Part shown: positions 38,288-64,000 of the stretch, one piece after another
Position numbering within the stretch: position 1 is the stretch's first letter
Layout: every line of letters begins with the position of its first letter
Source: Candidatus Latescibacterota bacterium
GTDB lineage: Bacteria; Latescibacterota; UBA2968
Reading direction: 5' to 3'
Assembly (NCBI GenBank): GCA_965204375.1
Contig: OZ241986.1
Span: forward strand, 4,384,001-4,448,000
DNA: 64,000 nt
The notes under the pieces: generated by a model
Database searches by the model: none
Told to the model about the DNA's origin: nothing
The model's input: the letters and a program-made list of their open reading frames with translations, nothing else
Program-made: the position numbers and the translations under genes

Positions 38288-38325
38288 ACCGCGCGAACCA
38301 AACGCGGTGAAAGAGAGACATAACA

Positions 38326-39475: not shown

Positions 39476-39492
39476 AAGAAGGCAGGCAAAAC

Positions 39493-41010: not shown

Positions 41011-41028
41011 GAGAACAAAGGACCAGAT

Positions 41029-43265
<2,237 letters not shown>

Positions 43266-43270
43266 CAAAA

Positions 43271-45128: not shown

Positions 45129-46154
45129 ATGACTGATGTTGCGCGACGCGTACTCGTAACAGGTGCTGCGGGATTTATTGGCTTTCATCTCTCCAAACGA
45201 CTGCTCGAAATGGGGCATTCGGTGGTCGGATTGGACAATGTAAACGATTATTACAGTACCCAACTCAAAGAAGACCGCCTATCTATTCTCAAGCGAGAAA
45301 ACGGATTCAAATTTGTTCGCATGCATCTCGAGGACGAAGCGGGAATAGCAGACCTATTTCGCGCAGAGAACTTCTCTCATGTCATCAACCTCGCGGCCCA
45401 GGCGGGCATGCCTTATAGCCTGAAAAATCCCCAGGCCTTCGTCAAAAGCAATGTCATGGGATTTCTCAACATCCTGGAAGGATGTCGCCACTGCGGCATC
45501 GAACACCTGGTCTATGCATCTTCCAGTTCTGTTTATGGCTTGAACACCACCACACCCGCTAACATCCACCAAAATGTCGATCATCCGATCAGCCTGTACG
45601 CAGCGACAAAAAAATCAGATGAATTGATGGCACATGCGTATAGCGATCTATACGACATTCCGACAACCGGATTGCGCTTTTTCTCCGTCTATGGACCCTG
45701 GGGACGTCCGGATGGGGTTGCCTATCTGTGGACCAGAGCCATCCTGAAAAATCGACCGGTCAAAGTCTATAATCACGGGAAAATGCGTCGCAGTTTTACG
45801 TATGTCGGCGACATTGTCGAAGGGGTAGCTCGCGTATTGTCAAATCCCGCAAAGCCAGATCCCGAATGGACAGGGCAATGTCCCGATCCGGGATCGAGTT
45901 CCAGCCCCTATCGGATCTACAATATCGGCAATCCCAATGTTATAGAACTGGAGTATTTCCTCTCGCTATTGGAAGACTTGCTGGGAAAAAAGGCTATCCG
46001 AAAAGATATGCCCATACCGCCTGGAGATTTCACGGATAATGCCGCAGATGTATCGGACCTGATGCGAGATGTCGGCTACAATCCCACAACGCCCATAGAA
46101 ACAGGACTCGCAAATTTTGTCGCCTGGTACAGGGACTATCACAACGTGAAGTAA
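45129..46154 (+). CDS. NAD-dependent epimerase (UDP-glucuronate 4-epimerase-like)
   Basis: GAAGFIG, NLAAQAG, YASSSSVYG, YAATKK and RFF.VYGPWGRPD motifs. Confidence 0.92.
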   Translation: MTDVARRVLVTGAAGFIGFHLSKRLLEMGHSVVGLDNVNDYYSTQLKEDRLSILKRENGFKFVRMHLEDEAGIADLFRAENFSHVINLAAQAGMPYSLKNPQAFVKSNVMGFLNILEGCRHCGIEHLVYASSSSVYGLNTTTPANIHQNVDHPISLYAATKKSDELMAHAYSDLYDIPTTGLRFFSVYGPWGRPDGVAYLWTRAILKNRPVKVYNHGKMRRSFTYVGDIVEGVARVLSNPAKPDPEWTGQCPDPGSSSSPYRIYNIGNPNVIELEYFLSLLEDLLGKKAIRKDMPIPPGDFTDNAADVSDLMRDVGYNPTTPIETGLANFVAWYRDYHNVK

Positions 46155-47592: not shown

Positions 47593-47847
47593 ATGGACAC
47601 AGAGACTAATGAAGATTGGGTGGTAATCCGGGTAAGAGATACAGGCACAGGCATTGAGGAAGAACATCTCACCCAGCTATTTGATCCTTTTTTTACAACC
47701 AAAGAAGTGGGTAAAGGAACGGGACTGGGGCTTTCGGTCAGTTATGGTTTGATCCAAGAGCACGGAGGCCAGATTGAGGTGAGCAGTCAACCGGGCAAAG
47801 GTACTGAGTTCCAGATTTATCTTCCCTTTAGACGAATAGACGAATAG
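47593..47847 (+). pseudogene. Truncated sensor histidine kinase (only the C-terminal HATPase_c part)
   Basis: DTGTGI (G1), FDPFFTTK (F) and GTGLGLS (G2) boxes are present; H and N boxes are missing; in-frame TAA at 47584. Confidence 0.8.
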
Positions 47848-48030: not shown

Positions 48031-48147
48031 CCGCCACCCAAAATGTATCCGCAGATGGACGCAGATGGGGAAGGCGCAGCTATGAACTGGCGTGGGACGC
48101 AGCGTAGCTATACACCGTTTTGTACAGATGCACAGCGGAGAAAAAAG

Positions 48148-49536
48148 ATGGACAAAGAGAAAATCCTCATCATAGATGACGAGCCGGATATGTTGAGTGG
48201 TTGCCAAAAGTTTCTGGAGGAAGCGGAATACGCTGCTGTCGTGGCAGAATCAGGTGAGGATGGGATCGCGTTGTTCGAGACAGAAAACCCCGATCTGGTC
48301 ATTGTGGATTTGAAGATGCCCGGGATGGACGGGATGGCTGTGCTTCAAAGCATTATGGCACGCGATAGGGAGGCCGTTGTAATTGTCTTTACAGGATATG
48401 GAACCGTTGAGAGTGCAGTGAAAGCGATCAGAGCAGGCGCGTTCGACTTTGTTCAGAAACCATTTGATGTAGATGCATTTCTAATCGTGATAGAGCGGGC
48501 ACTGAAGTTGCGGCAGGTGAGGATGGAGAACAGTGCTTTGAAACAACTGTTGGAGACGCGGTTTCGGTTCGAGAACATCATCGGGCATAGTAAAGCGATC
48601 ACACAGGTATTTGATCTAATGCGAAAAATCAGCGACATAGATGCCAATGTCCTGATCACAGGAGAGAGCGGAACGGGAAAAGAATTGGTGGCGCAGTGTA
48701 TTCACGCCAATAGCAAGCGCAGCCATAAGCCGTTTGTGCCGCTCAACTGCGGGGGCCTGCCAGAGCCTCTCATTGAAAGTGAGATATTTGGTCATACAAA
48801 GGGGGCATTCACAGATGCGAAACAGAACCGCGTCGGGTTAATAGAACACGCTAAGGGTGGGACATTTTTTCTCGATGAAATCGGGGAATTGCCCATGCAC
48901 CTTCAGGTGAAATTCTTGCGCGTTTTGGAAGACCACAAAATTCGCAGGTTGGGAAGCAATGAGGAGATAGAAATCGACATCCGTCTCATCTCGGCGACCA
49001 ATCAGAATATTGAAGCGTTAATAAAAAAGGGCAGATTTCGAGAAGATTTATTTTATCGACTTAACACCTTTGAGATTCACTTACCGCCTCTCAGAGAACG
49101 GCAGGGAGATATTCAACTTCTTGCCATGCACTTTGTGAATCACTTTGCCGAGACCTCTGAAAAGGCGATTCAAGGTATTTCCACCGAGGCAATGGATGTG
49201 TTGTGCGACTATACCTGGCCTGGCAATGTGCGAGAATTGATGCATGTGATGGAGCGAGCTATTGCCCTATCAGATGCGGATGCGATCCAGATCGAGGATT
49301 TACCTGAAAATTTAATCGCTCAGACCGGAGATACCATTGTTTCTCCACAGACCGATTTGCCTTTCCAAGAAGCCAAAGACGCGGTGGTTGAGAAATTTGA
49401 GCGGACCTTTATTGACCGCCTCCTCAAAGCGCACAACGGCAATGTGTCCCGTGCAGCCAGACAGAATGGAATGAATCGGCACAGGCTGCAACGGTTAATC
49501 TCCAAATATGCAATAGATATATCTACTTACAGATAG
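48148..49536 (+). CDS. Sigma-54-dependent response regulator (NtrC/AtoC family)
   Basis: Receiver domain (IIDDE…DLKMPGMDG), GESGTGKE, GAFTDA, LDEIG, WPGNVREL and a Fis-type HTH. Confidence 0.95.
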   Translation: MDKEKILIIDDEPDMLSGCQKFLEEAEYAAVVAESGEDGIALFETENPDLVIVDLKMPGMDGMAVLQSIMARDREAVVIVFTGYGTVESAVKAIRAGAFDFVQKPFDVDAFLIVIERALKLRQVRMENSALKQLLETRFRFENIIGHSKAITQVFDLMRKISDIDANVLITGESGTGKELVAQCIHANSKRSHKPFVPLNCGGLPEPLIESEIFGHTKGAFTDAKQNRVGLIEHAKGGTFFLDEIGELPMHLQVKFLRVLEDHKIRRLGSNEEIEIDIRLISATNQNIEALIKKGRFREDLFYRLNTFEIHLPPLRERQGDIQLLAMHFVNHFAETSEKAIQGISTEAMDVLCDYTWPGNVRELMHVMERAIALSDADAIQIEDLPENLIAQTGDTIVSPQTDLPFQEAKDAVVEKFERTFIDRLLKAHNGNVSRAARQNGMNRHRLQRLISKYAIDISTYR

Positions 49537-50126: not shown

Positions 50127-51887
50127 ATGGCAAATTCAGAATTATATCGCGTATCGTCCTATACGATTTGTGTCAAGCTGCCTGAAGATCCAAATTACAC
50201 TTTGCTCGTTCACGGCTATACGGGCGCAATAGATAGAGTGAATAAAGAAGTCGCTCAGATGATCAAAAGCAAGGTTGTTCTCTCGGAAGATATGTTTGAT
50301 CAACTGCCTTGTTCAAAAGGGACGATTCATACTTTAATGAAGCGTGGCTATCTGACCAGTCGTTCTCCTGTGGAAGAACGAGAATACGTGCATAGCATGG
50401 CGAATTTTCTCCACCATACCTCAAGTCGAGGTGCCGCATCTTTCCTTTTCTTAGTGGCCTACGATTGCAACTTCCGCTGTCCCTATTGTTATGAAAATGA
50501 CATTTCATCTCATGGAAAGGGGTGGTCAAAACAGGTCTTTACAAAGGAATTGGTTGACCGCGCATATCAGGCTATGCTTGAAATCCAACCGAACAGAGCC
50601 ATACATAGCAAAAATATCACTTTGTATGGTGGAGAGCCTTTGTTAAAAAAAAATAAAGAGATTGTGCAGTATATCGTAGATGAAGGTTTGAAACACGGTT
50701 ACACTTTTTCTGCGATTACAAATGGATATGATCTTCACCATTTTACGGATTTATTAGGTCCCCAAAAAATCAGACGTCTCCAGATTACCTTAGATGGCGA
50801 AGAAGAAAATCACAATCTCAAGCGTCCACATTATCGTGCAGGAGATAGTTTTGATGCGATCATGAAAAATGTGGCACTTGCTCTGTCGCTTGATGTGCAA
50901 GTTTCAATGCGAATCAATACAGATTACGACAATGTGGATATTTTACCTGCATTATTTGATTTGTTCAAAGATAGAGGATTTACAGAGTATCCGAAATTTT
51001 CGGCCTATTCTGCATTGGTGCATCAGGTTGAAGAGAGCCTGTCCTGTAGTTCTACCATGTCAGGAAAAAAGACGCCAGGCAATTATGGCCAGACGACACC
51101 TCTGCTTTCTATTGAATCACCAGCATCAGATTTTGAACCCTCTGAGTCTGTTGCCTCTGTCATATCCTTTAAGGAGAGTAAGACTCAGAAACAAAAAACT
51201 TTTGATCATGAAGAATTTGAACTCCAAGCACAGTTGCACACTGCTTCTGAAATGCTCATAGATGAAGAACAATATATCAATGTGGAACAAGAAGAAAAAA
51301 TTTTCTCGAACTACCAAAACGGCACACGCCCAGTTGGTCTTCATGAACTCTCTCAAGAGATGGAGTCAAACCATCTCGAGAATCGAAAAATTCCTGTTAT
51401 GCCGAGAAGAGAGTTTACACGCAAATATTATCAATTTGCTAAAGAAAATCCTGACTTGATGCATCAAATTTCTTGCCAAGACTATGGCATTAGACAGAGT
51501 TTCAAACAGGCCCTTGATGGTAAAGGTCTGTTGAGTTTTAAACCCATCTTCTGCGGGGCGCAGAACCGTATGTTGATCCTCGATCCTTATGGAGATCTCT
51601 ATACATGTTGGGAAATGGTGGGTTTAGATCGGTATAAAGTTGGTAGCTATATCAATCAAGTTGAATTCAATGATGAACGTTTATCAGAATGGTATGATCG
51701 GAATATTTCCAATGTACCGTCTTGCAGTAAATGCAAATATGCATTCTTTTGTGGTGGAGGGTGTGCTGCACATGCATTTATAAAAAATAATGGAAATGTC
51801 AACACATCCTATTGTGATGAGTATCCCAGGATTTTCCATACAGTTGTGCCTGAGATATTTGAGGAGCAAAAACAAAAAACCTTATAG
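50127..51887 (+). CDS. Radical SAM/SPASM-domain peptide maturase
   Basis: CNFRCPYC, YGGEP and TNG motifs; SPASM C..G.LYTC…CSKCKYAFFCGGGC…C; N-terminal RRE-like region; RBS GGGAGG. Confidence 0.92.
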   Translation: MANSELYRVSSYTICVKLPEDPNYTLLVHGYTGAIDRVNKEVAQMIKSKVVLSEDMFDQLPCSKGTIHTLMKRGYLTSRSPVEEREYVHSMANFLHHTSSRGAASFLFLVAYDCNFRCPYCYENDISSHGKGWSKQVFTKELVDRAYQAMLEIQPNRAIHSKNITLYGGEPLLKKNKEIVQYIVDEGLKHGYTFSAITNGYDLHHFTDLLGPQKIRRLQITLDGEEENHNLKRPHYRAGDSFDAIMKNVALALSLDVQVSMRINTDYDNVDILPALFDLFKDRGFTEYPKFSAYSALVHQVEESLSCSSTMSGKKTPGNYGQTTPLLSIESPASDFEPSESVASVISFKESKTQKQKTFDHEEFELQAQLHTASEMLIDEEQYINVEQEEKIFSNYQNGTRPVGLHELSQEMESNHLENRKIPVMPRREFTRKYYQFAKENPDLMHQISCQDYGIRQSFKQALDGKGLLSFKPIFCGAQNRMLILDPYGDLYTCWEMVGLDRYKVGSYINQVEFNDERLSEWYDRNISNVPSCSKCKYAFFCGGGCAAHAFIKNNGNVNTSYCDEYPRIFHTVVPEIFEEQKQKTL

Positions 51888-51986: not shown

Positions 51987-52235
51987 ATGTCTTCCCCAGT
52001 GTCTTCAGAAGCCGATCTCAAAGCGCACATAGCGTCATACCCTGAACTTTACGAGGATCTGGCTGTTGATGTTCTTGAAGAACGTTTGGAAATGTGGTGT
52101 GTTTGCGATAGTTTGGAGTGCATTTGTGATGAGTTTGAGTGCATTTGTGATGAGTTTGAGTGTATTTGTGATGATCTTTGTATTGATTGTTGGACTGATT
52201 TTTGTGTGATTGATCTGTGTGATATTGATTCTTAG
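51987..52235 (+). CDS. Cys/Asp/Glu-rich RiPP precursor peptide (putative)
   Basis: RBS AAGGAGGG; 36-aa leader ending LEERLEM; 46-aa core with 12 Cys and 15 D/E; directly after the rSAM gene. Confidence 0.85.
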   Translation: MSSPVSSEADLKAHIASYPELYEDLAVDVLEERLEMWCVCDSLECICDEFECICDEFECICDDLCIDCWTDFCVIDLCDIDS

Positions 52236-52634: not shown

Positions 52635-53528
52635 ATGGTCATTCGCATTTCAAACTTGGCAAAAACATATCGACGCGGTGATACGCCAGTACTAGACGAT
52701 GTCACTTTGAGCATCCCACACGGCACATTTGGTCTGTTGGGACCCAATGGCGCGGGAAAAACTACGCTAATCAAAATCCTGTCGACCCAAATGGACGCAT
52801 CGAGCGGCAACGTTACCATGGATGATTTCGATTTGGTCCAAAACCGCGCAGAAATTCGGCATCGCATTGGATATTTGCCTCAGCATTTTGGCACCTATCC
52901 CCAACTCACCGCTTGGGAATTTCTCGATTATATGGGCATTTTGGGCGGTATCCACAACAGGACAGAGCGTCTAAATCGCGTAGAGCAAGCTCTAAACGAA
53001 GTCGGGTTATACGATGCACGCAAGTGGCACACGGGCACGTTTTCCGGTGGCATGGTGCGGCGTCTTGGCATTGCACAGGCCATTTTGACCGATCCAGAGT
53101 TTCTCATTGTCGATGAACCCACCGTGGGGCTTGATCCGGAAGAACGCATCCGGTTTCGAAGTATTTTGGGACGCTTGAGCAGCGATCGCGCCATTTTGAT
53201 CTCCACGCATATTGTAGGTGATATTTCGAGCACTTGCAAGGATATCGCAATTTTGAATCGTGGACAACTGGTCTTTCGCGGCTCCCCATCAGACCTGATT
53301 TCAAAGGCGGATGGCAAGACGTGGCAAATACAGGTTGATGAGCCCCACTTTGAAAAGCTGTCGCGTGTGTTTCATGTAGTGACGGTCAATGTTGAAGGGG
53401 ATCGCATGAGTGTGCGAATGGTGGGCGATGGCGATCCTCTCGCTGATGCCGAAGCAGTCTCGCCCAATCTGGAAGATGCGTATCTCTATTTTATGAGTGG
53501 CGACATTACTGATGAAATCGCATCGTGA
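52635..53528 (+). CDS. ABC transporter ATP-binding protein
   Basis: GPNGAGKTT, FSGGM, VDEPT.GLDP and STH motifs. Confidence 0.95.
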   Translation: MVIRISNLAKTYRRGDTPVLDDVTLSIPHGTFGLLGPNGAGKTTLIKILSTQMDASSGNVTMDDFDLVQNRAEIRHRIGYLPQHFGTYPQLTAWEFLDYMGILGGIHNRTERLNRVEQALNEVGLYDARKWHTGTFSGGMVRRLGIAQAILTDPEFLIVDEPTVGLDPEERIRFRSILGRLSSDRAILISTHIVGDISSTCKDIAILNRGQLVFRGSPSDLISKADGKTWQIQVDEPHFEKLSRVFHVVTVNVEGDRMSVRMVGDGDPLADAEAVSPNLEDAYLYFMSGDITDEIAS

Positions 53529-53620
53529 AGATAAAAAAGAAGAAACTTTCTTATTGATCACCAGCCTTGGGCGGTGTAGGTGGTCCTTTTAAGTCTTGTC
53601 CTTGGAAAAGGAGTAATACC

Positions 53621-56600
53621 ATGTTATCTGCTCTTCATAACATACTCGGTGTTGCACGTTACGAGTGCAAAATGCTTTTGAGAACCACAAAATTTCGCAT
53701 TTTGGGTGGATTGACAGTGTGTATTTACGTTTGCTTGGGCATTAATTTTGCCTTGGGATTTTGGAATAAAGCACACAAAGGACTTGAAGGATACGAGTCT
53801 TATGTTCTGTTTCTCGTATACACTACCTTTCAGGCCCTTGTCATTCCATTTCTTGCAGGATCTTTTAGAACTGCTGACGAAAATGCCCATATTTATGAAG
53901 TGGTTGCTGGGCGTCCTATTTCGACAGCAGCACTCGTTGTAGGTAAGTATTTGGGCACTGTCAGTGCGTTTTTCTTTTTTAGTCTTAGTGTTCTGATTTT
54001 GGCCTTGAGCATCCAAGCAGCAGAGATCAGCATGGCGGATAATCCATTTACTATAGAACCTTATCTGTTATACCTTTTGCTCTTGAACTTTCCCACTCTG
54101 ATTTTTTTATCTTCTCTTACATTTTTTCTGGGGGTCTTGCTACGTCGGCCAATAGCTGCTGCCTTGATTGTAACTACATATTCGTTCGCTGCCATATTAT
54201 TCTTCTCAGGTAGTCAATATTTCAACGTGGGATTTGACTTTCTTGGTTTAGATGACTACATGGGTTATTCGGATCTGATGGGTATAGGGAATATTACACA
54301 AGTGGGTTTGCAACGCCTGTTTTACGTTTTGCTCGGCATTGGCTTTTTGGGATTGGCGATTGATCGATATCCCCGTCTTGCACACTCCATGAACGCGCAA
54401 TGGTTTGGTCGCGGATGCGCTCTAACCGGTTTTGGATTGACCACAGGTCTTTACTTTTTTTTTCATGCGGATGTGCAAAACCGGCAGACATATCGCCAGT
54501 CATTGCTCGCGCAACAGGAAGCCGTTGCACATATTCCCGTAACAGAAATCACTCATTATGACTTGGCAGTGACACTTCTGGGCAAAGATCTGCTCTCAGC
54601 CTCTGGCAAGATCATCTTAAAAAATAATCTTGAAGTACCTCTTGATACACTGATTCTTTCACTCAATCCCGGACTGAAAATTCAAAGCCTGATGCAGGAC
54701 AATGGTAGCAACATTGAATGGGATCGGACGGGAAGTGTGATCCGCGTCATGCCAGATGCTCCTTTGCTATCGGATCAAGAACTCGGTCTAAAACTAAATT
54801 ATGCAGGGGATATTGACACAGATGGTTTTGATCTCAAACGAGAAAAAGGCAAATCTAGGTTTTTGCCAGGGCGGATGGGCATGGGATTTTTAACGGCGTG
54901 GATTCGCGATAATTCCATCTTTTTGCCTCCACGCAGCCGATGGTATCCGGTAACGGGCGTTGATTATGGCTACAAGCATGCACGTCCGGCCTCTTTTTCA
55001 ACAGCAAACTTGCACATCACCTTCCCGCAAGGTCTCGAAATCATTACCCAAGGGCAGATAGGCAAGACCGATACCCTCGGCACACAAGTGATCCGCCAAT
55101 GGGTTGTTGAAAATCCCGTACCCGTCCTGTCTCTGAACGCGGGTGTGTATTGCGTGTATCGTGCCACCATTCACGACATCGAATGTGCCCTTTACGTGCA
55201 TCCATCACATTTGCGCTTGATCCGCTTTTTTGAAGATGCTGAAGAAGAGGTTGTGCGTGCGCTTGGGCAAATCGTGGATATGATGGAACAGGAATCAGGT
55301 ATGAAATATCCCTACCCCAATCTCTCTTTAGTGGAAATTCCGTTCCATATTCAGTGGTATTACGAAGGCTGGGAAGAAAAGGGGGGCCTGACGCTACCGG
55401 GCGTGTTGATGATTGAAGAAAAGGTACTTGCAAGGCAGAGTTTTACCCACATTTATAAGCCTTATCAACAGCAATTGAGTGTCAACCGAGAACCTAAAAA
55501 TCTAAAAAAAGACCTTCTGGTACGCGCTGTTTTAGAAACCTTTTTTGCAGAAGAAAGTGCGAATAGTGGGCTTTTTCGTAGCCCTGTTTTTCAACTCTGG
55601 GCTTATGACAAGAATTTTGTGGGCGATCATTATGCTCTGCTCAAAAAGGGCATGCCCCTATACCTTCAGAGTAATTTGAGAAACGATATGGCATCTGCTT
55701 TTTTTTCACGCCGCCGACAGCGTAGTGGGGTTAGCAGAGGGTCAAGCAAGGATTGGAATAGATTGACCGCCAAGATGCAACGGAAGTCGTTTGCCGATTT
55801 AGACCCCGAACAAGAGGCTAAACTCTATCGCCAAGTGCTTGACGTAAAGGGGCCGGGACTCTTTGAGATGATGGCGTCCTTTTTAGGTGAAGAAACCTTC
55901 CGCACCCTCATATCTGACATCAACCAGAATTATAAATATAAGGACATTGATTTTTCGACCTTTGAACGTGCCGCTGTGGGCTATACAGAAGATGAAGATC
56001 GCTTGAGACTACAGCGCTTGGTCAAAGATTGGATATTTAGCACAGAAATCCCAGGCTATACCCTGACAAGTGTAAAAGCCTTAAAGATAGACGATGGCTC
56101 TGGGATATTGGCCTATCAATTGATTGTGCGGATCAAGAACAGCGAACCCGGTAGGGGCTATGTGCAAATTACTGCCTTAAGCGAAAATGATGAGGCGATA
56201 AAAGGCGTCGAGATTGAAAGTGGACAGGAAATTGAAGTTTCGATGGTGCTGTGGGAGCAGCCCTTGCGGGTGATCATTGAACCCTTTTTTGCACGCAACC
56301 GCCAACCGCTCATATCCCCTGTGCGTGTTCCTGAACAGGTTACAAAGGGAGCTCCCATTGCCTATCTTAAAGATGTGACAGGAGAGGAGGATATGACTCA
56401 TGCGGATACGGATCCTATTGAAATTATTGTAGATAATGATGATAAAGGATTTTCAATGCCCATTCACCGCGTGACACGCTTCTCGCGTCCCGGCCTCAAA
56501 GGGGGTAACTGGCGCGAGCGTAGCCTGCCAGTAGCTTATGGACGATATGCAAAAAACTATCGGCAGAAGAAACCGGGCGATGGCGCACAACCTGCTGTGT

Positions 56601-56935
56601 GGACCGCACAAATTCCCAGAGATGGTGAGTTTGATGTGAGCTTCTATTTTCCCGACCAGGCAACAGCTAAGCGCGAGGGTATTGCACCAGCCTTTACCCT
56701 TACTGTTTTTCACGCGGGTAAGGTCGATACCCTTAAAATGGAGCGCGACCTTATGAAAGCGGGCTGGAATCACCTAGGGCGATACAAATTTGTCAATAGG
56801 GAAGAGGCTGTGGTCGAATTGTCTGACCGCGCAGAGGGGGTCCTATATGCTGATGCTGTGCGCTGGCGTTTTGTGGATAAACTCATTCCTCAACAGGCTT
56901 TCTTCGATCCACAAAACCCCGGTGCCCATAGGTAA
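53621..56935 (+). CDS. ABC-2 permease fused to an M1-aminopeptidase-like domain and a C-terminal golvesin-like beta domain
   Basis: N-terminal TM segments (GKYLG); HYDL, WYP, YPY..L..VE and V.KG..LF.M M1-like segments; IIVDNDD…GW..LG.Y.F…ADAVRW tail. Confidence 0.75.
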   Translation: MLSALHNILGVARYECKMLLRTTKFRILGGLTVCIYVCLGINFALGFWNKAHKGLEGYESYVLFLVYTTFQALVIPFLAGSFRTADENAHIYEVVAGRPISTAALVVGKYLGTVSAFFFFSLSVLILALSIQAAEISMADNPFTIEPYLLYLLLLNFPTLIFLSSLTFFLGVLLRRPIAAALIVTTYSFAAILFFSGSQYFNVGFDFLGLDDYMGYSDLMGIGNITQVGLQRLFYVLLGIGFLGLAIDRYPRLAHSMNAQWFGRGCALTGFGLTTGLYFFFHADVQNRQTYRQSLLAQQEAVAHIPVTEITHYDLAVTLLGKDLLSASGKIILKNNLEVPLDTLILSLNPGLKIQSLMQDNGSNIEWDRTGSVIRVMPDAPLLSDQELGLKLNYAGDIDTDGFDLKREKGKSRFLPGRMGMGFLTAWIRDNSIFLPPRSRWYPVTGVDYGYKHARPASFSTANLHITFPQGLEIITQGQIGKTDTLGTQVIRQWVVENPVPVLSLNAGVYCVYRATIHDIECALYVHPSHLRLIRFFEDAEEEVVRALGQIVDMMEQESGMKYPYPNLSLVEIPFHIQWYYEGWEEKGGLTLPGVLMIEEKVLARQSFTHIYKPYQQQLSVNREPKNLKKDLLVRAVLETFFAEESANSGLFRSPVFQLWAYDKNFVGDHYALLKKGMPLYLQSNLRNDMASAFFSRRRQRSGVSRGSSKDWNRLTAKMQRKSFADLDPEQEAKLYRQVLDVKGPGLFEMMASFLGEETFRTLISDINQNYKYKDIDFSTFERAAVGYTEDEDRLRLQRLVKDWIFSTEIPGYTLTSVKALKIDDGSGILAYQLIVRIKNSEPGRGYVQITALSENDEAIKGVEIESGQEIEVSMVLWEQPLRVIIEPFFARNRQPLISPVRVPEQVTKGAPIAYLKDVTGEEDMTHADTDPIEIIVDNDDKGFSMPIHRVTRFSRPGLKGGNWRERSLPVAYGRYAKNYRQKKPGDGAQPAVWTAQIPRDGEFDVSFYFPDQATAKREGIAPAFTLTVFHAGKVDTLKMERDLMKAGWNHLGRYKFVNREEAVVELSDRAEGVLYADAVRWRFVDKLIPQQAFFDPQNPGAHR

Positions 56936-57030
56936 TGAACTAGCCGCGTTTATGTTTGACCGAGGCAGACATGTCCCCAAAGAAACCTCATTTACCTTTT
57001 ATTTTTAAATTCATTGTGAAAGGTATAGTT

Positions 57031-59550
57031 ATGAAAGTCCTACATGTTTTGAATTATTCACTATGGTCTCGACAGGCAGGCTATACCATAAGAAGTAAAT
57101 ATATCTTCGATACCCAAAGCAAAATAGGGCTTGAACCCATCGTAGCAACCCGCTTCAAAGACACTCATCTTATAGACAGTAAATTTCTTGTTGAAGAGGA
57201 GTATCTGGATGGGGTATTGTACTTAAACGACATGACCCAAGCATCGCTTGATCAACATTTCCATGACCTTAGTTTTTGTCAGCCCCGACATTCTACTGCA
57301 TTACATCGTGAAGGATTGCAGCGGCAGTTCAAGAATCATATTTCTCGTGTTGTCGAAGTTCACAGACCGGAAGTGATCCATGTGGCCTCTCCTGCCCAAA
57401 ATGCATTAATATCGGCTGAAGTTGGACACAAATACAACCTGCCTGTGATCTATGAAGTGCGCGGATTATGGCACGAAACGGACGTGGTCGCTGGAACACT
57501 TGATACTTCTTCAAAAGCATATCAGCACCGACACTTTTTGTTTGTAGAGGCTATGAAACGAGCTGATCTGGTCGTCACATTAGCTGAAACAATGAAAGAG
57601 GAATTTATCCGAGAAGGGATTCCTGAAGATAAAATTTTCATTGTTCCCAATGGCGTAGATACATCAAAATTTACACCGAGGCCATACCCAACCCATTTGG
57701 CGAGAAGATTAGGGCTTGGTTCAGGTCATATAACCATCGGACATATTGGTTCAGTCAGAAAACTCGAAGGCCTCCGTTGGCTATTCAAAGCGGCGAAAAT
57801 GCTCCTATCCCATCATCCTCGTGTTAAAATTCTCATTGTTGGTGATGGAGATGAGTTGGAACCACTCCAAAGGCTTGCAAAAGAGCTAAGTTTAGAATCG
57901 GTTGTACACTTTACAGGACAGGTACCACACGAAGATATTCTCGACTATTATGCCTTAATTGATATTTTCGCGATACCCAGAGTTCGAAGTCGCGTGACGG
58001 AATTGGTGACTCCTATTAAGCCGTATGAAGCCATGGCAATGGGAAAAGCCGTCATTGTCAGCGATGTGGCTGCGCTTCGTGAAATTATAGATGACGGCAC
58101 GACAGGGCGTATATGCAATGCGGATGATCCAGAGGATCTCGCAGAGAAATGCTCGGCTTTAATCCAGGATACACAACTTAGAGCGGAACTTGGGCATCAG
58201 GCAAGACATTGGATTGCAGAACACAGAGATTGGCAGCAAGTAGTGGCAAATTATGAACCCATATATAAGCATGCGATCCAGGAAAAACACCATCGGGCAT
58301 CCAAGCCACTATCAAAATCCCGCCGGAAGCGTATCATCCTTTATAGCCAGCATCTCGTTGGCATGGGCCATCACTTTCGCAACCTTCAGATTGCTCGCGC
58401 ATTAGCAAGAAATCACGATGTTTACTTTGTGAATGGGGGACGCCCAATTCCCGATTTCAGAATGCCAGAATCCATTCGTTTAATTCAATTAATGCCTATT
58501 TCACTGACCCCAGAGGGTTTAGCGTCCGAAGATGGAGATCAAGGTATCCAGGAAACTTTCGAGAAACGGCTGATTGAATTGACCAAGGCAGTTACAGATA
58601 TCCAGCCAGACATGATTATGATTGAACATTTTCCCTTTGGTCGATGGAAGCTACGCCCGGAATTACAATGCCTGTTGGGAATGGTCAAATCGAAGTTTCC
58701 GGATATTCATATCATCTGTTCTTTGCGCGACATCCCGCTACGGGCAAAAACGGCTGATATTTTTAAGCCTCATTCGGGTATCAATGTAGAAAGACCAGAC
58801 CCCCTGATCCCTCAAGACCAGGACCTATATAAAGCCAAGAGGTATTATGAGGAAGTTTGTCCGACATTAAATGCTTACTTTGATGCGTTGCTTATTCATG
58901 GAGATCCGAGCGTGACCCAACTAAAAGAATATTTCCCCTGGGTAGAAGATATTGTCATACCGATTGTATATACTGGATATGTATCTGAAAAGCCGAATGG
59001 CGTGATAGATGGAAAACCCGATGAGAGCATAGACAATTTTGTACTGGTTAGCGCAGGTGGTGGTGTTGATGCCTACGAGCTTGTTGTGCCTTGTATCAAA
59101 GCTTGGGAATTGCTGCATAAACAGAGAAAGGTTGATGGTTGGAAAATGGTCATATTTCCGGGCCCGTTTATCAATGATGATCAATACGAGGCATTGGAAA
59201 GGATGTGTGAAATGGGGCCGTTCTATATGAGGTGCTATACACCTGATTTTCTTCAATGGATGCAGGCGGCTAATTTTGTAATTAGCCGGGCAGGTTACAA
59301 TACTTGTGTCAACATTTTGGAAACCGGTACGACTGCACTACTTGTACCGAGTTTACTATCTGAAGATCAAAATATCAGAGCAAGTAGGCTGGCTGATCTG
59401 GGACTGATAAAGAAAATTGATCCGGTTGATCTGACGCCTGATAGCGTCGCAGACAGTATTATGCAGAATTTATCTCGTCAAAAATCTCTTACCCACGAGA
59501 TTAAATTAAATGGTACAGAACAGACGCTTTCATTTATTGATAGTCTTTAG
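57031..59550 (+). CDS. Two-domain glycosyltransferase (GT4 + GT28-like C-terminal)
   Basis: GY.IRS, YEVRG.W, PNGVD and P.KPYEAMA.G (GT4); YSQH..G.GH…VSAGGG…SRAGYNT (second GT-B domain). Confidence 0.85.
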   Translation: MKVLHVLNYSLWSRQAGYTIRSKYIFDTQSKIGLEPIVATRFKDTHLIDSKFLVEEEYLDGVLYLNDMTQASLDQHFHDLSFCQPRHSTALHREGLQRQFKNHISRVVEVHRPEVIHVASPAQNALISAEVGHKYNLPVIYEVRGLWHETDVVAGTLDTSSKAYQHRHFLFVEAMKRADLVVTLAETMKEEFIREGIPEDKIFIVPNGVDTSKFTPRPYPTHLARRLGLGSGHITIGHIGSVRKLEGLRWLFKAAKMLLSHHPRVKILIVGDGDELEPLQRLAKELSLESVVHFTGQVPHEDILDYYALIDIFAIPRVRSRVTELVTPIKPYEAMAMGKAVIVSDVAALREIIDDGTTGRICNADDPEDLAEKCSALIQDTQLRAELGHQARHWIAEHRDWQQVVANYEPIYKHAIQEKHHRASKPLSKSRRKRIILYSQHLVGMGHHFRNLQIARALARNHDVYFVNGGRPIPDFRMPESIRLIQLMPISLTPEGLASEDGDQGIQETFEKRLIELTKAVTDIQPDMIMIEHFPFGRWKLRPELQCLLGMVKSKFPDIHIICSLRDIPLRAKTADIFKPHSGINVERPDPLIPQDQDLYKAKRYYEEVCPTLNAYFDALLIHGDPSVTQLKEYFPWVEDIVIPIVYTGYVSEKPNGVIDGKPDESIDNFVLVSAGGGVDAYELVVPCIKAWELLHKQRKVDGWKMVIFPGPFINDDQYEALERMCEMGPFYMRCYTPDFLQWMQAANFVISRAGYNTCVNILETGTTALLVPSLLSEDQNIRASRLADLGLIKKIDPVDLTPDSVADSIMQNLSRQKSLTHEIKLNGTEQTLSFIDSL

Positions 59551-59687
59551 TTCTGTAATCTTTTGGGGAATACTACGCTCCTCAAGGAAACATGCCGGAG
59601 TAACTATAGGGCCTATGAATGCTGGTCCAATGTCCCCGCAGTGGTTTACGAATTAATCCACAAACCGTTTTCAATAAGGATATTAAC

Positions 59688-60695
59688 ATGAATAAACATT
59701 TACCATCAGATCCCTTTGAATCTCTTGAGGATGAAATTTCTTCACTGAACTTTGGTCTTCAGGATGATCTTTCAATCAAAAAATCCGAAGTCGAATTTTA
59801 TCAATTCATGTCGCAGATTTGTGAAGAATATAATCTGGAGGCAGCGTTACAACAGTATCCCGTATTTTTAGCCACTGATTTACATACTTCCTTTACATCG
59901 CAGTTCTCGGAGGTATTTGTCTTAGACGAAGATACGCATCAGAAATTGTATTTTGTCAATCGAGCACTGTATATCTATACGTCGTATATGGATAGTGTTT
60001 TGGATGATCGAAAGACTCTTAAAGCAGATGCCTATTTTTTAGCTTCTCTTTTGAGAGATCATGCATTTGGTCTTCTCAATGACTTATTTCCCCCATGTTC
60101 GGATTTTTGGGCCTTTGCCAAAAAGTATCAGCGTTGCGCCATTGCTGCAACACTACAAGAAAGAATAAAATGGAATAATCCCACATCTTATTCATTGGAT
60201 GAGGCATTTAACATTGCCTCTGGCAAAGCCGCCACAGCTCAGATGGTGACAACGGCTTTAGCCTGTTTGTCCAATTCTTCCGAGTTGATCCCTCCCTTTG
60301 AAAAATCTTTAGATGCCTTTTTTATGGGCTTACAATTTCATAATGATCTTAAAAATTGGCGATCAGACTTTATCGCTGGAAGATATTCGTATCTTTTGAA
60401 TCAAATTATTGAAAGAAAGGAACTTCACGAAAAATTAGAATCCGTTACCATGGAAGAACTGGCGCGTATGATTTACTTTACAGGGTTGGTAGAAGAAATT
60501 CTCGATCATTCAATAGATTGCTACAGGCAAGCCTTGTCGTATGTTCATCAATTACCCTGCACGGACTGGAAGATTGCGATTGACCGTAGCATATCTGAAA
60601 CGTCTGTTTTGCTCCGCAACTTGCAAAAACATAAGGAGCAAGAAATTGATCGGGTAAGTAAACTTGTAATGGAAAAGAAAAACAAAAGCCCTTAG
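59688..60695 (+). CDS. Class I isoprenoid-synthase-fold protein (ComQ-like putative peptide prenyltransferase)
   Basis: DSVLDD (first Asp-rich-like motif), GKAA and G.Q..NDL.NW..D (pseudo second Asp-rich motif); predicted all-helical. Confidence 0.6.
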   Translation: MNKHLPSDPFESLEDEISSLNFGLQDDLSIKKSEVEFYQFMSQICEEYNLEAALQQYPVFLATDLHTSFTSQFSEVFVLDEDTHQKLYFVNRALYIYTSYMDSVLDDRKTLKADAYFLASLLRDHAFGLLNDLFPPCSDFWAFAKKYQRCAIAATLQERIKWNNPTSYSLDEAFNIASGKAATAQMVTTALACLSNSSELIPPFEKSLDAFFMGLQFHNDLKNWRSDFIAGRYSYLLNQIIERKELHEKLESVTMEELARMIYFTGLVEEILDHSIDCYRQALSYVHQLPCTDWKIAIDRSISETSVLLRNLQKHKEQEIDRVSKLVMEKKNKSP

Positions 60696-60715: not shown

Positions 60716-62023
60716 ATGCAAGAATCCTTACCAGACCCGATTAAGTTGGTTCCCGAAATTTCTATGTATAAATTCGATACCTCTTTGGTAGAGAAGAGTT
60801 ATGTTTTATGCATCGGTACGAAACGGTTTGAAATAAGCGAAGGTATCTATCAACTCATAGAGTTGATAGATGGAAAAAGAACACTGTCTGAAATTGCAAG
60901 CGAATACTCTGCTATCAGGAATAAGACATACTCTGCCAAAGACATTGAGGCAATTATTCATTCATTTCTCGTGCCTTATGGAATCATCGCAAACACCACC
61001 TCAGATGACGATACTCAAACAAGTAATTCGTATTTTTATTTTCAATACCCTTTTATTCGAGTGAATGCGGTTCATGCCGTCAGTAATTTTCTCAAGATTC
61101 TCTATCATCCAAAAATTCTGATTTTCTTTATTCTATTCTCTTTTGTCTTTTTGTTGTATTTCTGTTTTTTTGTGTTCTCAGTCATAGATTTTACTATTTA
61201 TGATATTTCGTTTCGAGATGCGATTCTAATACTGATGATTTTTGGAATTTTAGGAATTTTTCACGAGTTAGGTCATTCTTCAGCTTGTGCTCATTATGGC
61301 GCGTCACCTGGCGAGATTGGGGTAGGCTTGTATCTGCGCTTTCCCGTTCTTTACTCTGATGTAACAGATGCTTGGAAGCTACCGAGAACGCAACGCGCGA
61401 TGGTGGATTTCGGCGGCATATATTTTCAGCTTATTTTTGTTCCTATACTCTTCATCTTGTATCTAACGACATCAAGTAGCGTATTTTTGTATGTCATTCT
61501 TTTTAACTACGGATCAGCACTGTTTAATTTGAATCCGATTTTCCGATTTGATGGGTATTGGCTTTTTTCAGATATAGCAGGTGTGCCAAATCTCAGGAAA
61601 AGATCTTTAGAAATTCTAAAATACTTTGCCAAGCGTTTCATTTTAAGGCAGAAAGAGATTGTCGAACCTGTCTTTCTGCGCATCAGTGGGAAAATAAAAT
61701 CGTTTCTTTGTGTGTATGGAATTGTCAGTACGAGCTTCTTCATTTTGTTCTTTTACAAGATTTTTTTTCTTTTTCCCGATTTGGTTTTAAATTATCCCGG
61801 TCTCGTATATAAGACTTTTAGCGAGATAATAAGCGGCTTTGCCGTTGGAGATTGGCAAACTGTTGGGCGTGCCCTTTCCAGCTTCTTTTTTCCTTCCCTG
61901 ATCATTTTGATGTTAAGTTTTGCTACATATCGAATGATGAAAAGGATAATGAGATTGACAAAGACCGTAGTGCGATGGGGAATACAAGTGACACGACACT
62001 TAAAAACACCAGGAATACACTGA
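60716..62023 (+). CDS. PqqD/RRE-like domain fused to an M50-family membrane zinc peptidase
   Basis: Y..I.LIDG.RTL.EI (winged HTH); HELGH; NLNPIFRFDGY (NxxPxxxxDG); several TM segments. Confidence 0.82.
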   Translation: MQESLPDPIKLVPEISMYKFDTSLVEKSYVLCIGTKRFEISEGIYQLIELIDGKRTLSEIASEYSAIRNKTYSAKDIEAIIHSFLVPYGIIANTTSDDDTQTSNSYFYFQYPFIRVNAVHAVSNFLKILYHPKILIFFILFSFVFLLYFCFFVFSVIDFTIYDISFRDAILILMIFGILGIFHELGHSSACAHYGASPGEIGVGLYLRFPVLYSDVTDAWKLPRTQRAMVDFGGIYFQLIFVPILFILYLTTSSSVFLYVILFNYGSALFNLNPIFRFDGYWLFSDIAGVPNLRKRSLEILKYFAKRFILRQKEIVEPVFLRISGKIKSFLCVYGIVSTSFFILFFYKIFFLFPDLVLNYPGLVYKTFSEIISGFAVGDWQTVGRALSSFFFPSLIILMLSFATYRMMKRIMRLTKTVVRWGIQVTRHLKTPGIH

Positions 62024-62033
62024 GGAGGTAAGT

Positions 62034-63224
62034 ATGAATATCTGCTTGATTACCTACCAGTATCCACCATACCCAGGAGGAGTTGGAAGTGCAATGTATC
62101 GAATTGCCAAAAATTTGGCAAAACAGGGTGTCAATATCCACATTATCGCGCCAGGTCCTCATCAATTAAGGGATAAAATCTCACCTGTCATAGAAGACGG
62201 TGTGACAGTACATCGAACATTTTCAATATTATCAGATTACCATGCTGATCCGCATAGTTTACAAGTACTTGGCGAATATATTGTAAAACTCCATCAAAAA
62301 CAGAGTTTTGACTTGATCCATGCAGCTTTTCTTATGCCACCTGGGTTCTTAGGTGCAATCGTGGCTACAGAGATTGAGTGTCCCCTTATCGTCAGTATTA
62401 GGGGCAATGATTGGGAGGTTTTGCGATATAGCATCCAACACTTGGCGAATCTAAGGTGGGTATTAGAAAGAGCCGATTATGTAACATCAGTATCTCATGA
62501 ACTCATGGAAAAGATGCGCCGAATGGTAAGAATCAAAGCAGGAAAAGTCCTTTCCAATGTGTTTGATGCGTCAATATTTGATGCACGTTTACTTTCAGAA
62601 ATAACAGAAGAGCATAATAATAGACTGCAGGTACTTACGGAAACCTTTTTTCGGATGAAATCAGAAGGTAGATCAGTCATCGGAACTGCTGGATTTCTGC
62701 GGCCTAAAAAGGGGTTTCACATTCTTTTACGAGCATTTGGAGGGATTGTTAAAGCTTATCCCAATACTTGTTTGCTCGTTGTAGGACAGTTTGCACAAGA
62801 ATCCTACAAAAGAGATATGTTGCAGCAGATCAGTGACCTGGGTATCAAAAGGCAAGTTTTATTTACAGGTTATATTCCACACCGAGAAGTATTAGCGTGG
62901 ATGAGAGAGATGGATATTTTTGCATTCCCTTCGCTTCATGAAGGTTCACCAAATGCACTGTTGGAGGCGATGGGTTTTGGACTTCCTATCGTGGCTTCCC
63001 AAATCGGTGGTATTATCGATATAGTTGAAGATAATAGGGATTGCCTTATTGTTCCCGGCGGTGACGCCGGTAGGTTATCCCAAAAATTGCAACTATTACT
63101 TGAAGATACAGAACTCAGAAAAAGACTTGGTAAGGCCGCAAAACATAAAGTGGAAAACCAATTTTCTCCAACTCAAGAAACAGAACAGTGGCTTGACATC
63201 TATCACCGTATATTGAATAACTGA
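62034..63224 (+). CDS. Glycosyltransferase family 4
   Basis: YPP..GG, KKG and PS..EG.P..LLEAM..G.P motifs. Confidence 0.9.
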   Translation: MNICLITYQYPPYPGGVGSAMYRIAKNLAKQGVNIHIIAPGPHQLRDKISPVIEDGVTVHRTFSILSDYHADPHSLQVLGEYIVKLHQKQSFDLIHAAFLMPPGFLGAIVATEIECPLIVSIRGNDWEVLRYSIQHLANLRWVLERADYVTSVSHELMEKMRRMVRIKAGKVLSNVFDASIFDARLLSEITEEHNNRLQVLTETFFRMKSEGRSVIGTAGFLRPKKGFHILLRAFGGIVKAYPNTCLLVVGQFAQESYKRDMLQQISDLGIKRQVLFTGYIPHREVLAWMREMDIFAFPSLHEGSPNALLEAMGFGLPIVASQIGGIIDIVEDNRDCLIVPGGDAGRLSQKLQLLLEDTELRKRLGKAAKHKVENQFSPTQETEQWLDIYHRILNN

Positions 63225-63472: not shown

Positions 63473-63784
63473 ATGGGCAAAAAAAGATCATATCCAGCAG
63501 CATTTCGCCAGCAAATGGTCGCGCTGGTCAGATCGGGTCGTAGTGCCAACGATTTGGCCAAAGAGTTTGAACCCACCGCCCAGACGATCAGTGCCTGGGT
63601 GCGTCAAGCAGATCGCGATGAAGGCCGTCGAGACGATGGGTTGACCAGTCGTGAGCGAGTAGAACTTCAAAGGCTTCGTAGAGAGAATAAACGCTTACGA
63701 CAAGAGCGCGAAATCCTTGCAGAAGCCGCGGCCTGGTTCGCAGCGGAGACCGATGCGATACCCAAAAAATCTTCAGATATATAA
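63473..63784 (+). CDS. IS3-family transposase OrfA
   Basis: Y..AF…V.L…GRS…LA.EF…W..Q…EL.RLRREN.RL..EREIL..A pattern; A6 run near the end (possible -1 frameshift site). Confidence 0.9.
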   Translation: MGKKRSYPAAFRQQMVALVRSGRSANDLAKEFEPTAQTISAWVRQADRDEGRRDDGLTSRERVELQRLRRENKRLRQEREILAEAAAWFAAETDAIPKKSSDI

Positions 63785-64000
63785 AGGCGCATCAGGCCAT
63801 CTATCCGATCACCATGCTATGCCAAGTGCTGGGCGTCTCCACCAGCGGGTATTATGCCTGGTGTCATCGACCTGTATCTAAACGGGCAAAGGACGATGAA
63901 AAGTTGACAGAACAAATAAGCACCTTTCACCAGCGTTCCAATGGGACCTATGGCGCACCTCGTATCTTATCTTTCAGGATCTGCGAGAAGTAGGTGTTCA

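Follow-up and report, generated by a model that had tools for sequence, protein, structure and literature searches.

The gene at 59688..60695 (+) of the window, that is, of the whole 64,000 nucleotide stretch analysed here, raises the question of whether a ribosomal peptide is prenylated in this Candidatus Latescibacterota genome, by what kind of enzyme, and on which residue. The original prediction was of a ComQ-like enzyme with an isoprenoid synthase fold, prenylating a Trp of the precursor peptide encoded nearby.

The gene and the predicted fold of its product

The coding sequence is genuine and carries both of the motifs first pointed out in it, DSVLDD and QFHNDLKNWRSD. It lies within an ORF at 59619..60695 (+), where the ATG at 59688 gives a stand-alone protein of 335 aa, a candidate peptide prenyltransferase; this ATG has AAGGA upstream with a spacer of 7 nt and is where 17 of the 20 close homologues in the alignment also start. 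A second copy is present in the same genome, in the cluster at locus L006, as a paralogue with 76% identity to the target and with DDxxD in place of its NDxxN. Among the Pfam and NCBIfam models there are no matches to the target protein.

A profile search of the PDB with the shallow alignment of close homologues returned nothing at E≤10, and with these 20 sequences alone the AF2 model had a pLDDT of 52.2. With distant relatives in the alignment the model is usable (pLDDT 91.7, pTM 0.88), and all 40 of the matches listed for it by Foldseek are trans-IPPS chains, with E-values from 5.9e-6. In VIA-align the best match is to the GGPPS 3n3d (Z 22.6, rmsd 2.8, 277 aligned), compared with Z 18.8 for Ord1 and 18.4 for MoeN5, both prenyltransferases of the IPPS fold that do not elongate chains, and about 13 for class I terpene synthases. 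A profile of the stand-alone members also matches the solved chains 3oyr (9e-9) and 4lob (4.8e-6), with FARM and SARM aligned. As modelled, the target has the trans-isoprenyl diphosphate synthase fold, which is what had been predicted, and the structure search that had been proposed as a check places IPPS ahead of the terpene synthases. Kinship with squalene/phytoene synthases (DxxxD motifs, 'GR.Y' after motif 2) was considered and rejected, as the CrtM-like chain aligns with Z 12.7 only, against 22.6 for IPPS, and the HMM matches are all to polyprenyl synthases.

Chain elongators carry basic motifs that bind IPP, namely GKRxR, RRG after the FARM, and a GK loop after the SARM. There are no columns with K/R at 60% or more before residue 180 of the family alignment, and therefore no equivalent of GKRxR or RRG, while HMM alignments to IPPS leave the GGKRvRP segment unmatched or deleted and show a deletion at the post-SARM GK loop. 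Judged by its sequence, the target appears not to be a chain elongator. The canonical trans-IPPS (PF00348) provide its best structural matches (Z 18–22.6), and their FARM, SARM, and K180 equivalent align with it, but it has no conserved basic IPP-binding motif, no GK loop, and no match to their Pfam model. When the genome was searched in six frames with PF00348 at E≤0.01, two canonical synthases were found elsewhere, and the target and its paralogue were both unmatched.

Motif conservation and family relationships

The equivalent of the FARM is DSVLDD (59991..60008, +), with D102 and D106 and with Ser at Asp2. The second motif, QFHNDLKNWRSD (60333..60368, +), contains Gln216 and the SARM equivalent N219-D220-L-K-N223-W-R-S-D227; both were located from the sequence and from HMM and family alignments. 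In HMM alignments to solved trans-IPPS chains, D102..D106 fall on the FARM (hDDviD), residues 219–223 on the SARM (FQxxDDxxD), and K180 on the 'KT' lysine of IPPS. The "degenerate first motif" of the original prediction is therefore a FARM that has lost Asp2 and kept Asp1 and Asp5, and what it called an "ND-type second motif" corresponds to a SARM altered to N-D-x-x-N.

The family consensus at the second motif is Q-L-x-D-D-L-x-D-W-K/R-x-D. Across the 150-sequence family alignment Asp is conserved at D102 (141/150), D106 (143/150), D220 (146/150), and D227 (149/150), position 224 is W in 145 sequences, and position 216 is Q in 128, a level of motif conservation that exceeds chance. The Gln upstream of the SARM is not discriminating, since canonical IPPS also have FQxxDD. 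Position 219 is D in 147/150 and position 223 is D in 146/150, with N at each in the target alone. This replacement of two near-invariant acidic residues could mark lost metal binding, and it counts, like the missing FARM Asp2, against reading the target as a peptide prenyltransferase. An apparent E157Q change in the same alignment is probably a slip of one column, given the near invariance of E158 among close relatives, and was left unused.

The profile search gives the target family 836 matches at E≤1e-3, and a family profile is now at hand for proteins that have no Pfam or NCBIfam coverage. Members of this family are fused to class II cyclase domains. Lengths of at least 560 aa are seen in 85 of the 150 aligned members, many being of about 680 aa, and SQHop_cyclase_C is present in 8 of the 11 scanned relatives longer than 400 aa; indeed, the closest relatives of the family are the N-terminal domains of prenyltransferase-cyclase fusions. 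Terpene_syn_C_2 matches are present in two relatives, weakly and below the cut-off (3.7e-3 and 7.2e-4). Using a fused relative as the query, tblastn against plasmids matched cyclase domains only, and the homologue search gave one name, that of the 'prenyltransferase/squalene oxidase repeat-containing protein' of a Melioribacteraceae MAG. Membership of the ComQ family (InterPro IPR033965), which is covered by PF00348 in Pfam, is not upheld, in that the target has no match to PF00348 at E≤1 and its nearest kin are these fusions.

The genome scan found two loci and the metagenome scan three, and in the phylum-wide search close homologues were present in 3 of 168 genomes, plus one distant member. 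Six of the 20 close homologues make up an NDxxN clade, monophyletic within DDxxD relatives, with 79–89% identity and with SDxxN in one of the six. The N-terminal 35 residues are specific to this clade, highly conserved, and of low model confidence. As NDxxN is nested within DDxxD relatives, the ND state is derived and is convergent with that of ComQ.

The cluster, the precursor, and the proposed acceptor residue

All of the genes described here are on the + strand. The response regulator, taken in the original prediction as a hint of a possible signalling peptide, is present upstream of the cluster (48043..49536), where it is of the sigma-54-dependent type and has beside it an 84 aa kinase fragment alone. 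The cluster includes a radical SAM/SPASM peptide maturase of 586 aa (50127..51887), which is CefB/PapB-like and below the curated cut-offs, an ABC transporter ATPase (52635..53528), a 1122 aa fusion (53567..56935) that combines an ABC-2 permease-like region, a weak M1-peptidase-like one, and Golvesin_C, and an 864 aa double glycosyltransferase composed of GT4 and a GT28-C-like part (56956..59550). These transport and glycosyltransferase genes occupy the 7.4 kb between the precursor gene and the target gene. The stop codon of the target is followed, after 20 nt, by the start of the gene for a membrane HExxH metalloprotease (60716..62023) whose N-terminus is PqqD-like (daptide-type, E 2.4e-36, below the cut-off), and then by a GT4 glycosyltransferase (62034..63224) which, on locus comparison, is syntenic in all four Latescibacterota clusters.

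The proposed association with a ribosomal peptide holds. Of the 8 loci compared, 6 (those of the window, L006, L007, L008, L009, and L010) have a radical SAM/SPASM gene and a precursor gene upstream of the family member, and a seventh, L021, has a PapB-like radical SAM gene two genes off. In the two distant loci L009 and L010, with 38% and 26% identity to the target, the family gene overlaps the precursor gene or starts 66 nt past its stop; there are no glycosyltransferases in either, and the radical SAM and precursor genes still directly adjoin. No radical SAM gene was seen on the 5.9 kb contig of L011. No account of such a cluster was found in the literature on radical SAM enzymes or ranthipeptides with prenylation, where one may still be in print.

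The precursor (51987..52235) is of 82 aa, with a conserved leader that ends ...LEERLEM and a core, WCVCDSLECICDEFECICDEFECICDDLCIDCWTDFCVIDLCDIDS, that contains 12 Cys along with W37 and W69, both at the positions originally given (ORF list). Cys is present in all six of the cognate cores, and near the start of each there is an aromatic residue beside Cys and Ile/Val (WCV, WCI, ACYI, AYICI, SCYI, CGFYIW). The precursors of the window, L007, and L010 (one Trp) bear Trp; those of L006, L008, and L009 are free of Trp, although all of the motif residues are retained in the enzymes of these loci, and Trp would thus be ruled out as an ancestral or general acceptor. As a rule for the whole family the claim of a Trp acceptor therefore fails, and it is plausible for the NDxxN clade only, where the two known precursors (window and L007) both have cores that open with W-C. 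As these two clusters are orthologous, the association of NDxxN with Trp represents a single evolutionary event. In ChrPC-type and PalQ-type Trp prenylation the first SARM Asp is used (PMC13290415, section 2.4), so that DDxxD is compatible with Trp and ND is not needed outside ComQ.

The predicted complex of target and precursor has a median score of 0.56, with 0.00 for the best of 3 controls, and is classed as 'weak support'. In the benchmark this mark was reached by 116 of the 157 solved complexes but also by 2 of the 215 mismatches; both of these mismatches, and only 18 of the solved complexes that passed, had scores of 0.60 or lower. Between runs at least 50% of the contacts recur, with a partner pLDDT of at least 51 and no contacts given; the complex is not counted as evidence.

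The prenyl enzyme-like fold, together with the place of the gene in a cluster for a modified Cys-rich peptide, makes it most likely that a lipid tail is put on the peptide. It is probable that the target prenylates the precursor at some residue, whichever that may be, while prenylation specifically on Trp is close to evenly balanced and leans slightly to the negative. The best explanation, which is put forward tentatively, is that the target is a stand-alone trans-IDS-like prenyltransferase tailoring a ribosomal peptide, for which Trp is a plausible acceptor.

In the following scheme we infer that a prenyl group is transferred, from which donor and to which acceptor, and in what order the steps occur. 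D102 and D106, aided by K180 and R225, would form the binding site for Mg2+ and for the diphosphate group of the allylic donor, be it GPP, FPP, or GGPP. Ionization of this donor would give an allylic cation in a pocket lined by three invariant residues, W141, W224, and W294, where the cation would be attacked by a side chain of the precursor. In the NDxxN clade this side chain would most likely be the indole of W37 or W69, given the ComQ-type pseudo-SARM and a core that opens with Trp. Thioether cross-links in the Cys/Asp-rich core would come from the radical SAM/SPASM enzyme, and loss of the leader from cleavage by the RRE-HExxH protease, with the ABC system as the route of export.

The peptide might instead be prenylated on a residue other than Trp, for instance on a Cys thiol or on the aromatic residue beside the first Cys, which is Tyr in the DDxxD clusters. 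The three Trp-free precursors would fit with this, as would the Cys residues and the aromatic and Ile/Val residues near the start of all six cores, and catalytic motif residues that are conserved with or without Trp in the precursor. It is nonetheless unlikely, given that the clade of the target has gained a Trp as the first core residue as well as the ComQ-type ND motif, that the radical SAM thioether chemistry would be expected to use the Cys residues, and that all of the characterized trans-IDS-like peptide prenyltransferases covered in section 2.4 of PMC13290415 act on Trp. It is very improbable that D219N and D223N ended second-site metal binding and left an impaired paralogue, now a peptide-binding scaffold or chaperone for the radical SAM enzyme or the protease. 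The N at 219 and 223 in the target alone among 150, the DDxxD paralogue in the same genome, and the conserved clade-specific N-terminus would be in keeping with such a role, but D102, D106, K180, Q216, D220, W224, R225, and D227 are all retained, the altered SARM has been kept over the six sequences of the clade, and ComQ and StheQ are active with the same kind of ND-type pseudo-SARM and a single FARM-bound Mg2+ (PMC5331326; 10.64898/2026.08.29.745113).

There is likewise little likelihood that the target is a small-molecule isoprenoid enzyme by which the peptide is untouched, whether a class I terpene synthase or a prenyl diphosphate synthase/transferase acting, for example, on a lipid/glycosyl-carrier substrate for the adjoining glycosyltransferases. 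The i, i+4, i+8 spacing of N219, N223, and D227 resembles that of the NSE/DTE triad, which class I terpene synthases have along with DDxxD and their alpha fold, and the weak Terpene_syn_C_2 matches, the glycosyltransferase genes beside the family gene in four clusters, and the contig of L011 also point this way. Set against these are the lower Z of the terpene synthases, the absence of basic IPP-binding motifs, the direct adjacency of radical SAM and precursor genes in L009 and L010 where glycosyltransferases are lacking, and the two canonical polyprenyl synthases that the genome already has.

A rather doubtful extension of the peptide prenyltransferase reading is that these clusters make an undescribed RiPP subclass, cross-linked by radical SAM enzymes (ranthipeptide-like) and prenylated by a stand-alone trans-IDS-like transferase. 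The DDxxD enzymes with Trp-free cores would modify a residue new to the enzyme class (the Tyr beside the first Cys, or Cys), and one Latescibacterota clade would have switched to Trp, convergently gaining the ComQ-type ND pseudo-SARM. If this is so, the acceptor scope of trans-IDS-like biocatalysts would be widened, and a class of lipidated, thioether-bridged peptides would be added from the uncultured phylum Latescibacterota. A natural experiment on how the second aspartate-rich motif governs the choice of acceptor would then be provided by this genome, in which a DDxxD and an NDxxN paralogue have separate precursors.

Comparison with known peptide prenyltransferases

Peptide lipidation by trans-IDS-like enzymes is known from few systems, those of ComQ, PalQ, ChrPC-P, and StheQ, and in all of them it is on Trp. 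In ComQ, according to PMC5331326, Asp1 and Asp5 of the FARM are indispensable, the second motif has to be NDxxx or GDxxx, and a change of N to D is deleterious, in agreement with the original use of the ND pseudo-SARM as a ComQ hallmark. All 4 of the positions essential in ComQ (FARM Asp1, FARM Asp5, and the N then D of the pseudo-SARM) are present in the target. According to PMC5331326 and 10.64898/2026.08.29.745113, ComQ and StheQ are like the target in the IPPS fold, in these FARM and pseudo-SARM residues, and in a ribosomal peptide that bears Trp. They are unlike it in that the target is without FARM Asp2 and has acquired its ND state within a family that otherwise has DDxxD. The target cluster, with its radical SAM maturase, HExxH protease, ABC genes, and glycosyltransferases, is not a comQXPA-like cassette, and its regulator is of the sigma-54 type with an 84 aa kinase fragment.

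ChrPC was reportedly described by Hubrich et al. in Chem in 2024 as a bifunctional RiPP prenyltransferase-terpene cyclase. In section 2.4 of the 2026 review PMC13290415 it is a ribosomal peptide Trp prenyltransferase-cyclase, with the prenyltransferase domain followed by the cyclase domain, and a Gln just upstream of the SARM is conserved in the trans-IDS-like peptide prenyltransferases. The ChrPC P domain and the target have in common this Gln, a trans-IDS-like fold, and a ribosomal peptide pathway. Among the matches to the profile of the target family there are also hundreds of proteins, about 680 aa in length, with the prenyltransferase domain N-terminal and SQHop_cyclase_C C-terminal, which are likened to ChrPC by their matching architecture alone. 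In contrast to ChrPC, the target is a stand-alone protein of 335 aa with no cyclase domain and an NDxxN SARM, and its partners are a radical SAM/SPASM maturase and a Cys-rich precursor.

PalQ of Paenibacillus alvei is a C-terminal and N-terminal Trp prenyltransferase, by which terminal Trp is accepted (PMC10853753). Its precursor PalX is of the NHLP type, without radical SAM chemistry, unlike that of the target. By its description, PalQ is like the target in being a stand-alone member of the isoprenoid synthase superfamily that is remote from the named subfamilies and is encoded beside a leader-bearing precursor, and W37 in the target cluster would similarly be the N-terminal residue of the core if the leader is cut after LEM.

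Fold and signature of the candidate prenyltransferase

The open reading frame expected from the original prediction is present at 59619..60695 (plus strand) and carries both motifs on the same strand, DSVLDD at 59991–60008 and the ND-type QFHNDLKNWRSD at 60333–60368, the equivalents of the two aspartate-rich motifs, the first (FARM) and the second (SARM), of trans-isoprenyl diphosphate synthases (trans-IPPS). The start codon is likely to be the ATG at 59688, as it is preceded by AAGGA with a 7 nt spacer and as, of 20 close homologues in the alignment, 17 begin there as well. The stop codon is 20 nt from the start of the next gene.

The protein has no match in Pfam or NCBIfam at E≤1. A word-indexed search returned 22 proteins of 65–100% identity, none with a functional name, and an exhaustive profile search returned 836 relatives at E≤1e-3, 301 of them at E≤1e-10. 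An AlphaFold model made from close homologues only is poor (pLDDT 52.2); that made from 150 diverse relatives has a pLDDT of 91.7 and a pTM of 0.88. All 40 of the Foldseek matches listed for the target model are trans-IPPS (E from 5.9e-6, query-normalised TM 0.52–0.68). In an independent all-against-representatives structure alignment, the top chains are GGPP, solanesyl, octaprenyl and heptaprenyl synthases (Z 22.6–21.3, rmsd 2.8–3.3, 269–279 residues aligned), followed by the non-elongating IPPS-fold prenyltransferases Ord1 (Z 18.8) and MoeN5 (Z 18.4), with class I terpene synthases (Z about 13) and a CrtM-like chain (Z 12.7) far lower. By sequence, a profile of 48 stand-alone members matches the solved structures 3oyr at 9e-9 and then 4lob, 5h9d and 4jxy at about 5e-6 to 7e-6, with family 'lltDkliDe' aligned on FARM 'hDDviDk' and 'lqlyDDlkDW' on SARM 'FQxxDDxxD'. 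These alignments make the two motifs of the target homologues of FARM and SARM. The predicted isoprenoid-synthase fold is therefore borne out.

The family signature, counted over 150 aligned sequences, consists of Asp at positions 102 (141/150), 106 (143/150), 219 (147/150), 220 (146/150), 223 (146/150) and 227 (149/150), Trp at 141 (146/150), 224 (145/150) and 294 (136/150), Lys or Arg at 180 (139/150) and 225 (132/150), and Gln at 216 (128/150). No column before residue 180 in this alignment has at least 60% Lys or Arg. In HMM alignments to IPPS, the family has nothing basic opposite 'GGKRvRP' and lacks the GK loop that follows the SARM; both are IPP-binding elements of chain-elongating enzymes. 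A PF00348 search of the genome found two canonical genes elsewhere and picked up neither the target nor its paralogue, which makes an ordinary prenyl-diphosphate synthase role unlikely. Both fold and family speak for prenyl-diphosphate chemistry in which no chain is elongated.

A length of at least 560 aa is seen in 85 of the 150 aligned relatives. SQHop_cyclase_C/Prenyltrans toroid matches, usually C-terminal to the IPPS-like domain, are present in 8 of the 11 scanned relatives over 400 aa, and two of these eight additionally have a GldB-like part. Against monodomain class II cyclases, the C-terminal half of the family profile scores about 1e-57 for 8pak and 8paj and 1e-36 for MstE. 8pak and 8paj are 'squalene-hopene cyclase' chains of 361–365 aa, and nothing else matches the cyclase portion of the fused relatives nearly as well; a literature search for these PDB entries found no paper, and they may be peptide-terpene cyclases.

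The cluster and its relatives

Upstream of the target, all on the plus strand, are a sigma-54 response regulator, a radical SAM/SPASM enzyme (586 aa, 50127–51887), the 82 aa precursor (51987–52235), an ABC ATPase, a permease / M1-like / Golvesin_C fusion (1122 aa, 53567–56935) and a double glycosyltransferase (864 aa). Downstream is a PqqD-like/HExxH membrane protease, matching a daptide-type model at 2.4e-36, below cut-off, and then a GT4 glycosyltransferase. The radical SAM enzyme is CefB-like (1.9e-37) and PapB-like (3.2e-34), with neither score coming near its curated cut-off. Its NCBIfam matches fall in two stretches (about 10–290 and 425–577), which implies that the radical-SAM core and SPASM domain are separated by some 130 inserted residues; the 463 aa homologue at the distant locus L009 is matched in a single stretch. 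In the fusion protein, the N-terminus is ABC-2 permease-like, the M1-peptidase match is weak and there is a Golvesin_C domain; export and peptidase activity may be combined in this one protein.

Just upstream of the response regulator, an 84 aa ORF (47593–47847) matches HATPase_c positions 34–110 only and looks like a truncated histidine-kinase remnant; a similar fragment is near the clusters of L007 and L008. Directly past the last glycosyltransferase, at 63473–63993, are an IS3-type transposase OrfA (HTH_Tnp_1) and the beginning of another ORF, and the cluster may border on a mobile or variable region. The F-type ATP synthase operon upstream (37226–43675; a, c, b, delta, alpha, gamma, beta, epsilon-like, from ORF translations) is unrelated to the target.

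Among 168 genomes of the phylum Latescibacterota, just 3 have close homologues of the target. The genome that carries the target has a paralogous cluster on the minus strand, L006 (G000:C1:3586000-3604000), with an AraC-type response regulator, rSAM/SPASM (83% identity), precursor, SusC/TonB-like protein, paralogue (76%), HExxH protease, methyltransferase and GT4. A 95% identical NAD-dependent epimerase-like gene adjoins both clusters (window 45129–46154, L006 1449–2471), which suggests that the duplicated block is larger than the peptide genes. Syntenic clusters are found on two other Latescibacterota chromosomes (L007, L008). Distant stand-alone members tell most about the context. In the case of L009 (38% identity), an rSAM/SPASM gene is followed by a 75 aa precursor, the IPPS-like gene 66 nt on, a TonB-like protein and a daptide-type HExxH protease, and in L010 (26%) by an 83 aa precursor whose stop is overlapped by the IPPS-like gene. 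L021 has the IPPS-like gene, a 'bacteriocin-type transport-associated' cNMP-domain protein and a PapB-like small rSAM; there is no rSAM on the 5.9 kb contig of L011. Overall, rSAM/SPASM and precursor are directly upstream in six of the eight loci, and a peptide-type rSAM is present in seven.

A leader-motif scan identified one precursor per locus. The leaders have ...PELY.DL...LEERLEM in common, and cleavage would be expected after LEM, as conservation ends there. The cores that follow are WCVCDSLECICDEFECICDEFECICDDLCIDCWTDFCVIDLCDIDS (window) and WCITHDCTTDDDDGFCLWHDCGKDIGGGSCGEHDCTIDS (L007) beside NDxxN enzymes, and SPFTACYINIGCDDADNGCGIENNNNDDDGSDDGSDDGSDDDGS (L006), SDLAAYICIGYVECVCDDCCAYTPCVVDVCGCDSFVDCEDCPSNS (L008), SCYINFGCGCEGQCVGYVCVYEGCIADCIADSGGLTS (L009) and AAKLAQLDAPGLGKPKKCGFYIWGPPKHSVTIEVPRKREGDDE (L010) beside DDxxD enzymes. 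In the window core, an ECICDEF-like unit occurs three times in tandem (SLECICDEF, ECICDEF and ECICDDL). The L006 precursor is Trp-free with an acidic GSDD-repeat tail, and L006 and the window together give one cell both a DDxxD and an NDxxN version, a natural pair.

The ND motif and the prenyl acceptor

In a tree of 20 close homologues, rooted with the homologue P0024, the six ND/SD..N sequences (P0001–P0005 and P0007) are one clade nested within the DDxxD sequences, so the NDxxN change happened once, has since been kept and has left all other signature residues intact. In the ComQ study (PMC5331326), the FARM is kept, with Asp1 and Asp5 essential, and in the SARM the second Asp alone is preserved; the first SARM residue must be Asn or Gly, N-to-D drastically cutting activity, and the last three are replaceable. 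The StheQ preprint (10.64898/2026.08.29.745113) describes one Mg2+ at the FARM and none at the pseudo-SARM, with N215 positioning Trp. The target has precisely the minimal set of ComQ (D102, D106, N219, D220), gained independently by its lineage. The core begins with Trp in the same lineage as the NDxxN enzymes, and this coincidence with the ComQ-type set is the best argument for Trp37 as the acceptor. The link goes back to one evolutionary event only, shared by two orthologous clusters, and calls for caution.

That the target is a RiPP prenyltransferase is the most economical explanation, given its fold and family, the relatives fused to cyclases acting on prenyl chains, and the stand-alone form, which accompanies a precursor and an rSAM maturase across 26–100% identity. 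It probably prenylates a peptide; that Trp is the acceptor in the window cluster is more tentative, its chances falling a little short of even. Trp is absent from the whole precursor in three of the six, Cys is present in all six and Ser is at the C-terminus of five. Prenylation of a residue other than Trp is considered unlikely for the window enzyme. It is less probable still that catalysis has been lost via D219N and D223N, leaving a scaffold, in a clade where all other signature residues are intact. A small-molecule isoprenoid enzyme is equally improbable. In open-access papers and preprints, no description was found of a trans-IDS-like transferase together with rSAM/SPASM cross-linking and a daptide-type protease.

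Comparison with ComQ, PalQ and ChrPC

A 2026 review (PMC13290415, section 2.4) names ComQ, PalQ and ChrPC's P domain as the trans-IDS-like peptide prenyltransferases. The ChrPC P domain prenylates an internal Trp with C10–C20 donors, after which cyclisation of the prenyl group falls to the C domain (Hubrich et al., Chem 2024, via PMC13290415). ChrPC-type and PalQ-type enzymes recognise the indole by the first SARM Asp and an upstream Gln (PMC13290415), and an ND motif is therefore unnecessary for Trp outside ComQ. The fused relatives resemble ChrPC in architecture, the sole basis of that match, whereas the target is without the cyclase domain that defines the ChrPC type. The original prediction of a ComQ-like enzyme holds for the trans-IPPS fold, the FARM/SARM homology and the ND pseudo-SARM; membership of the ComQ family itself is not supported. 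PF00348 gives no match, the FARM has lost its second Asp, and the ND motif arose convergently. The target is proposed to act in the manner of ComQ, PalQ or ChrPC's P domain.
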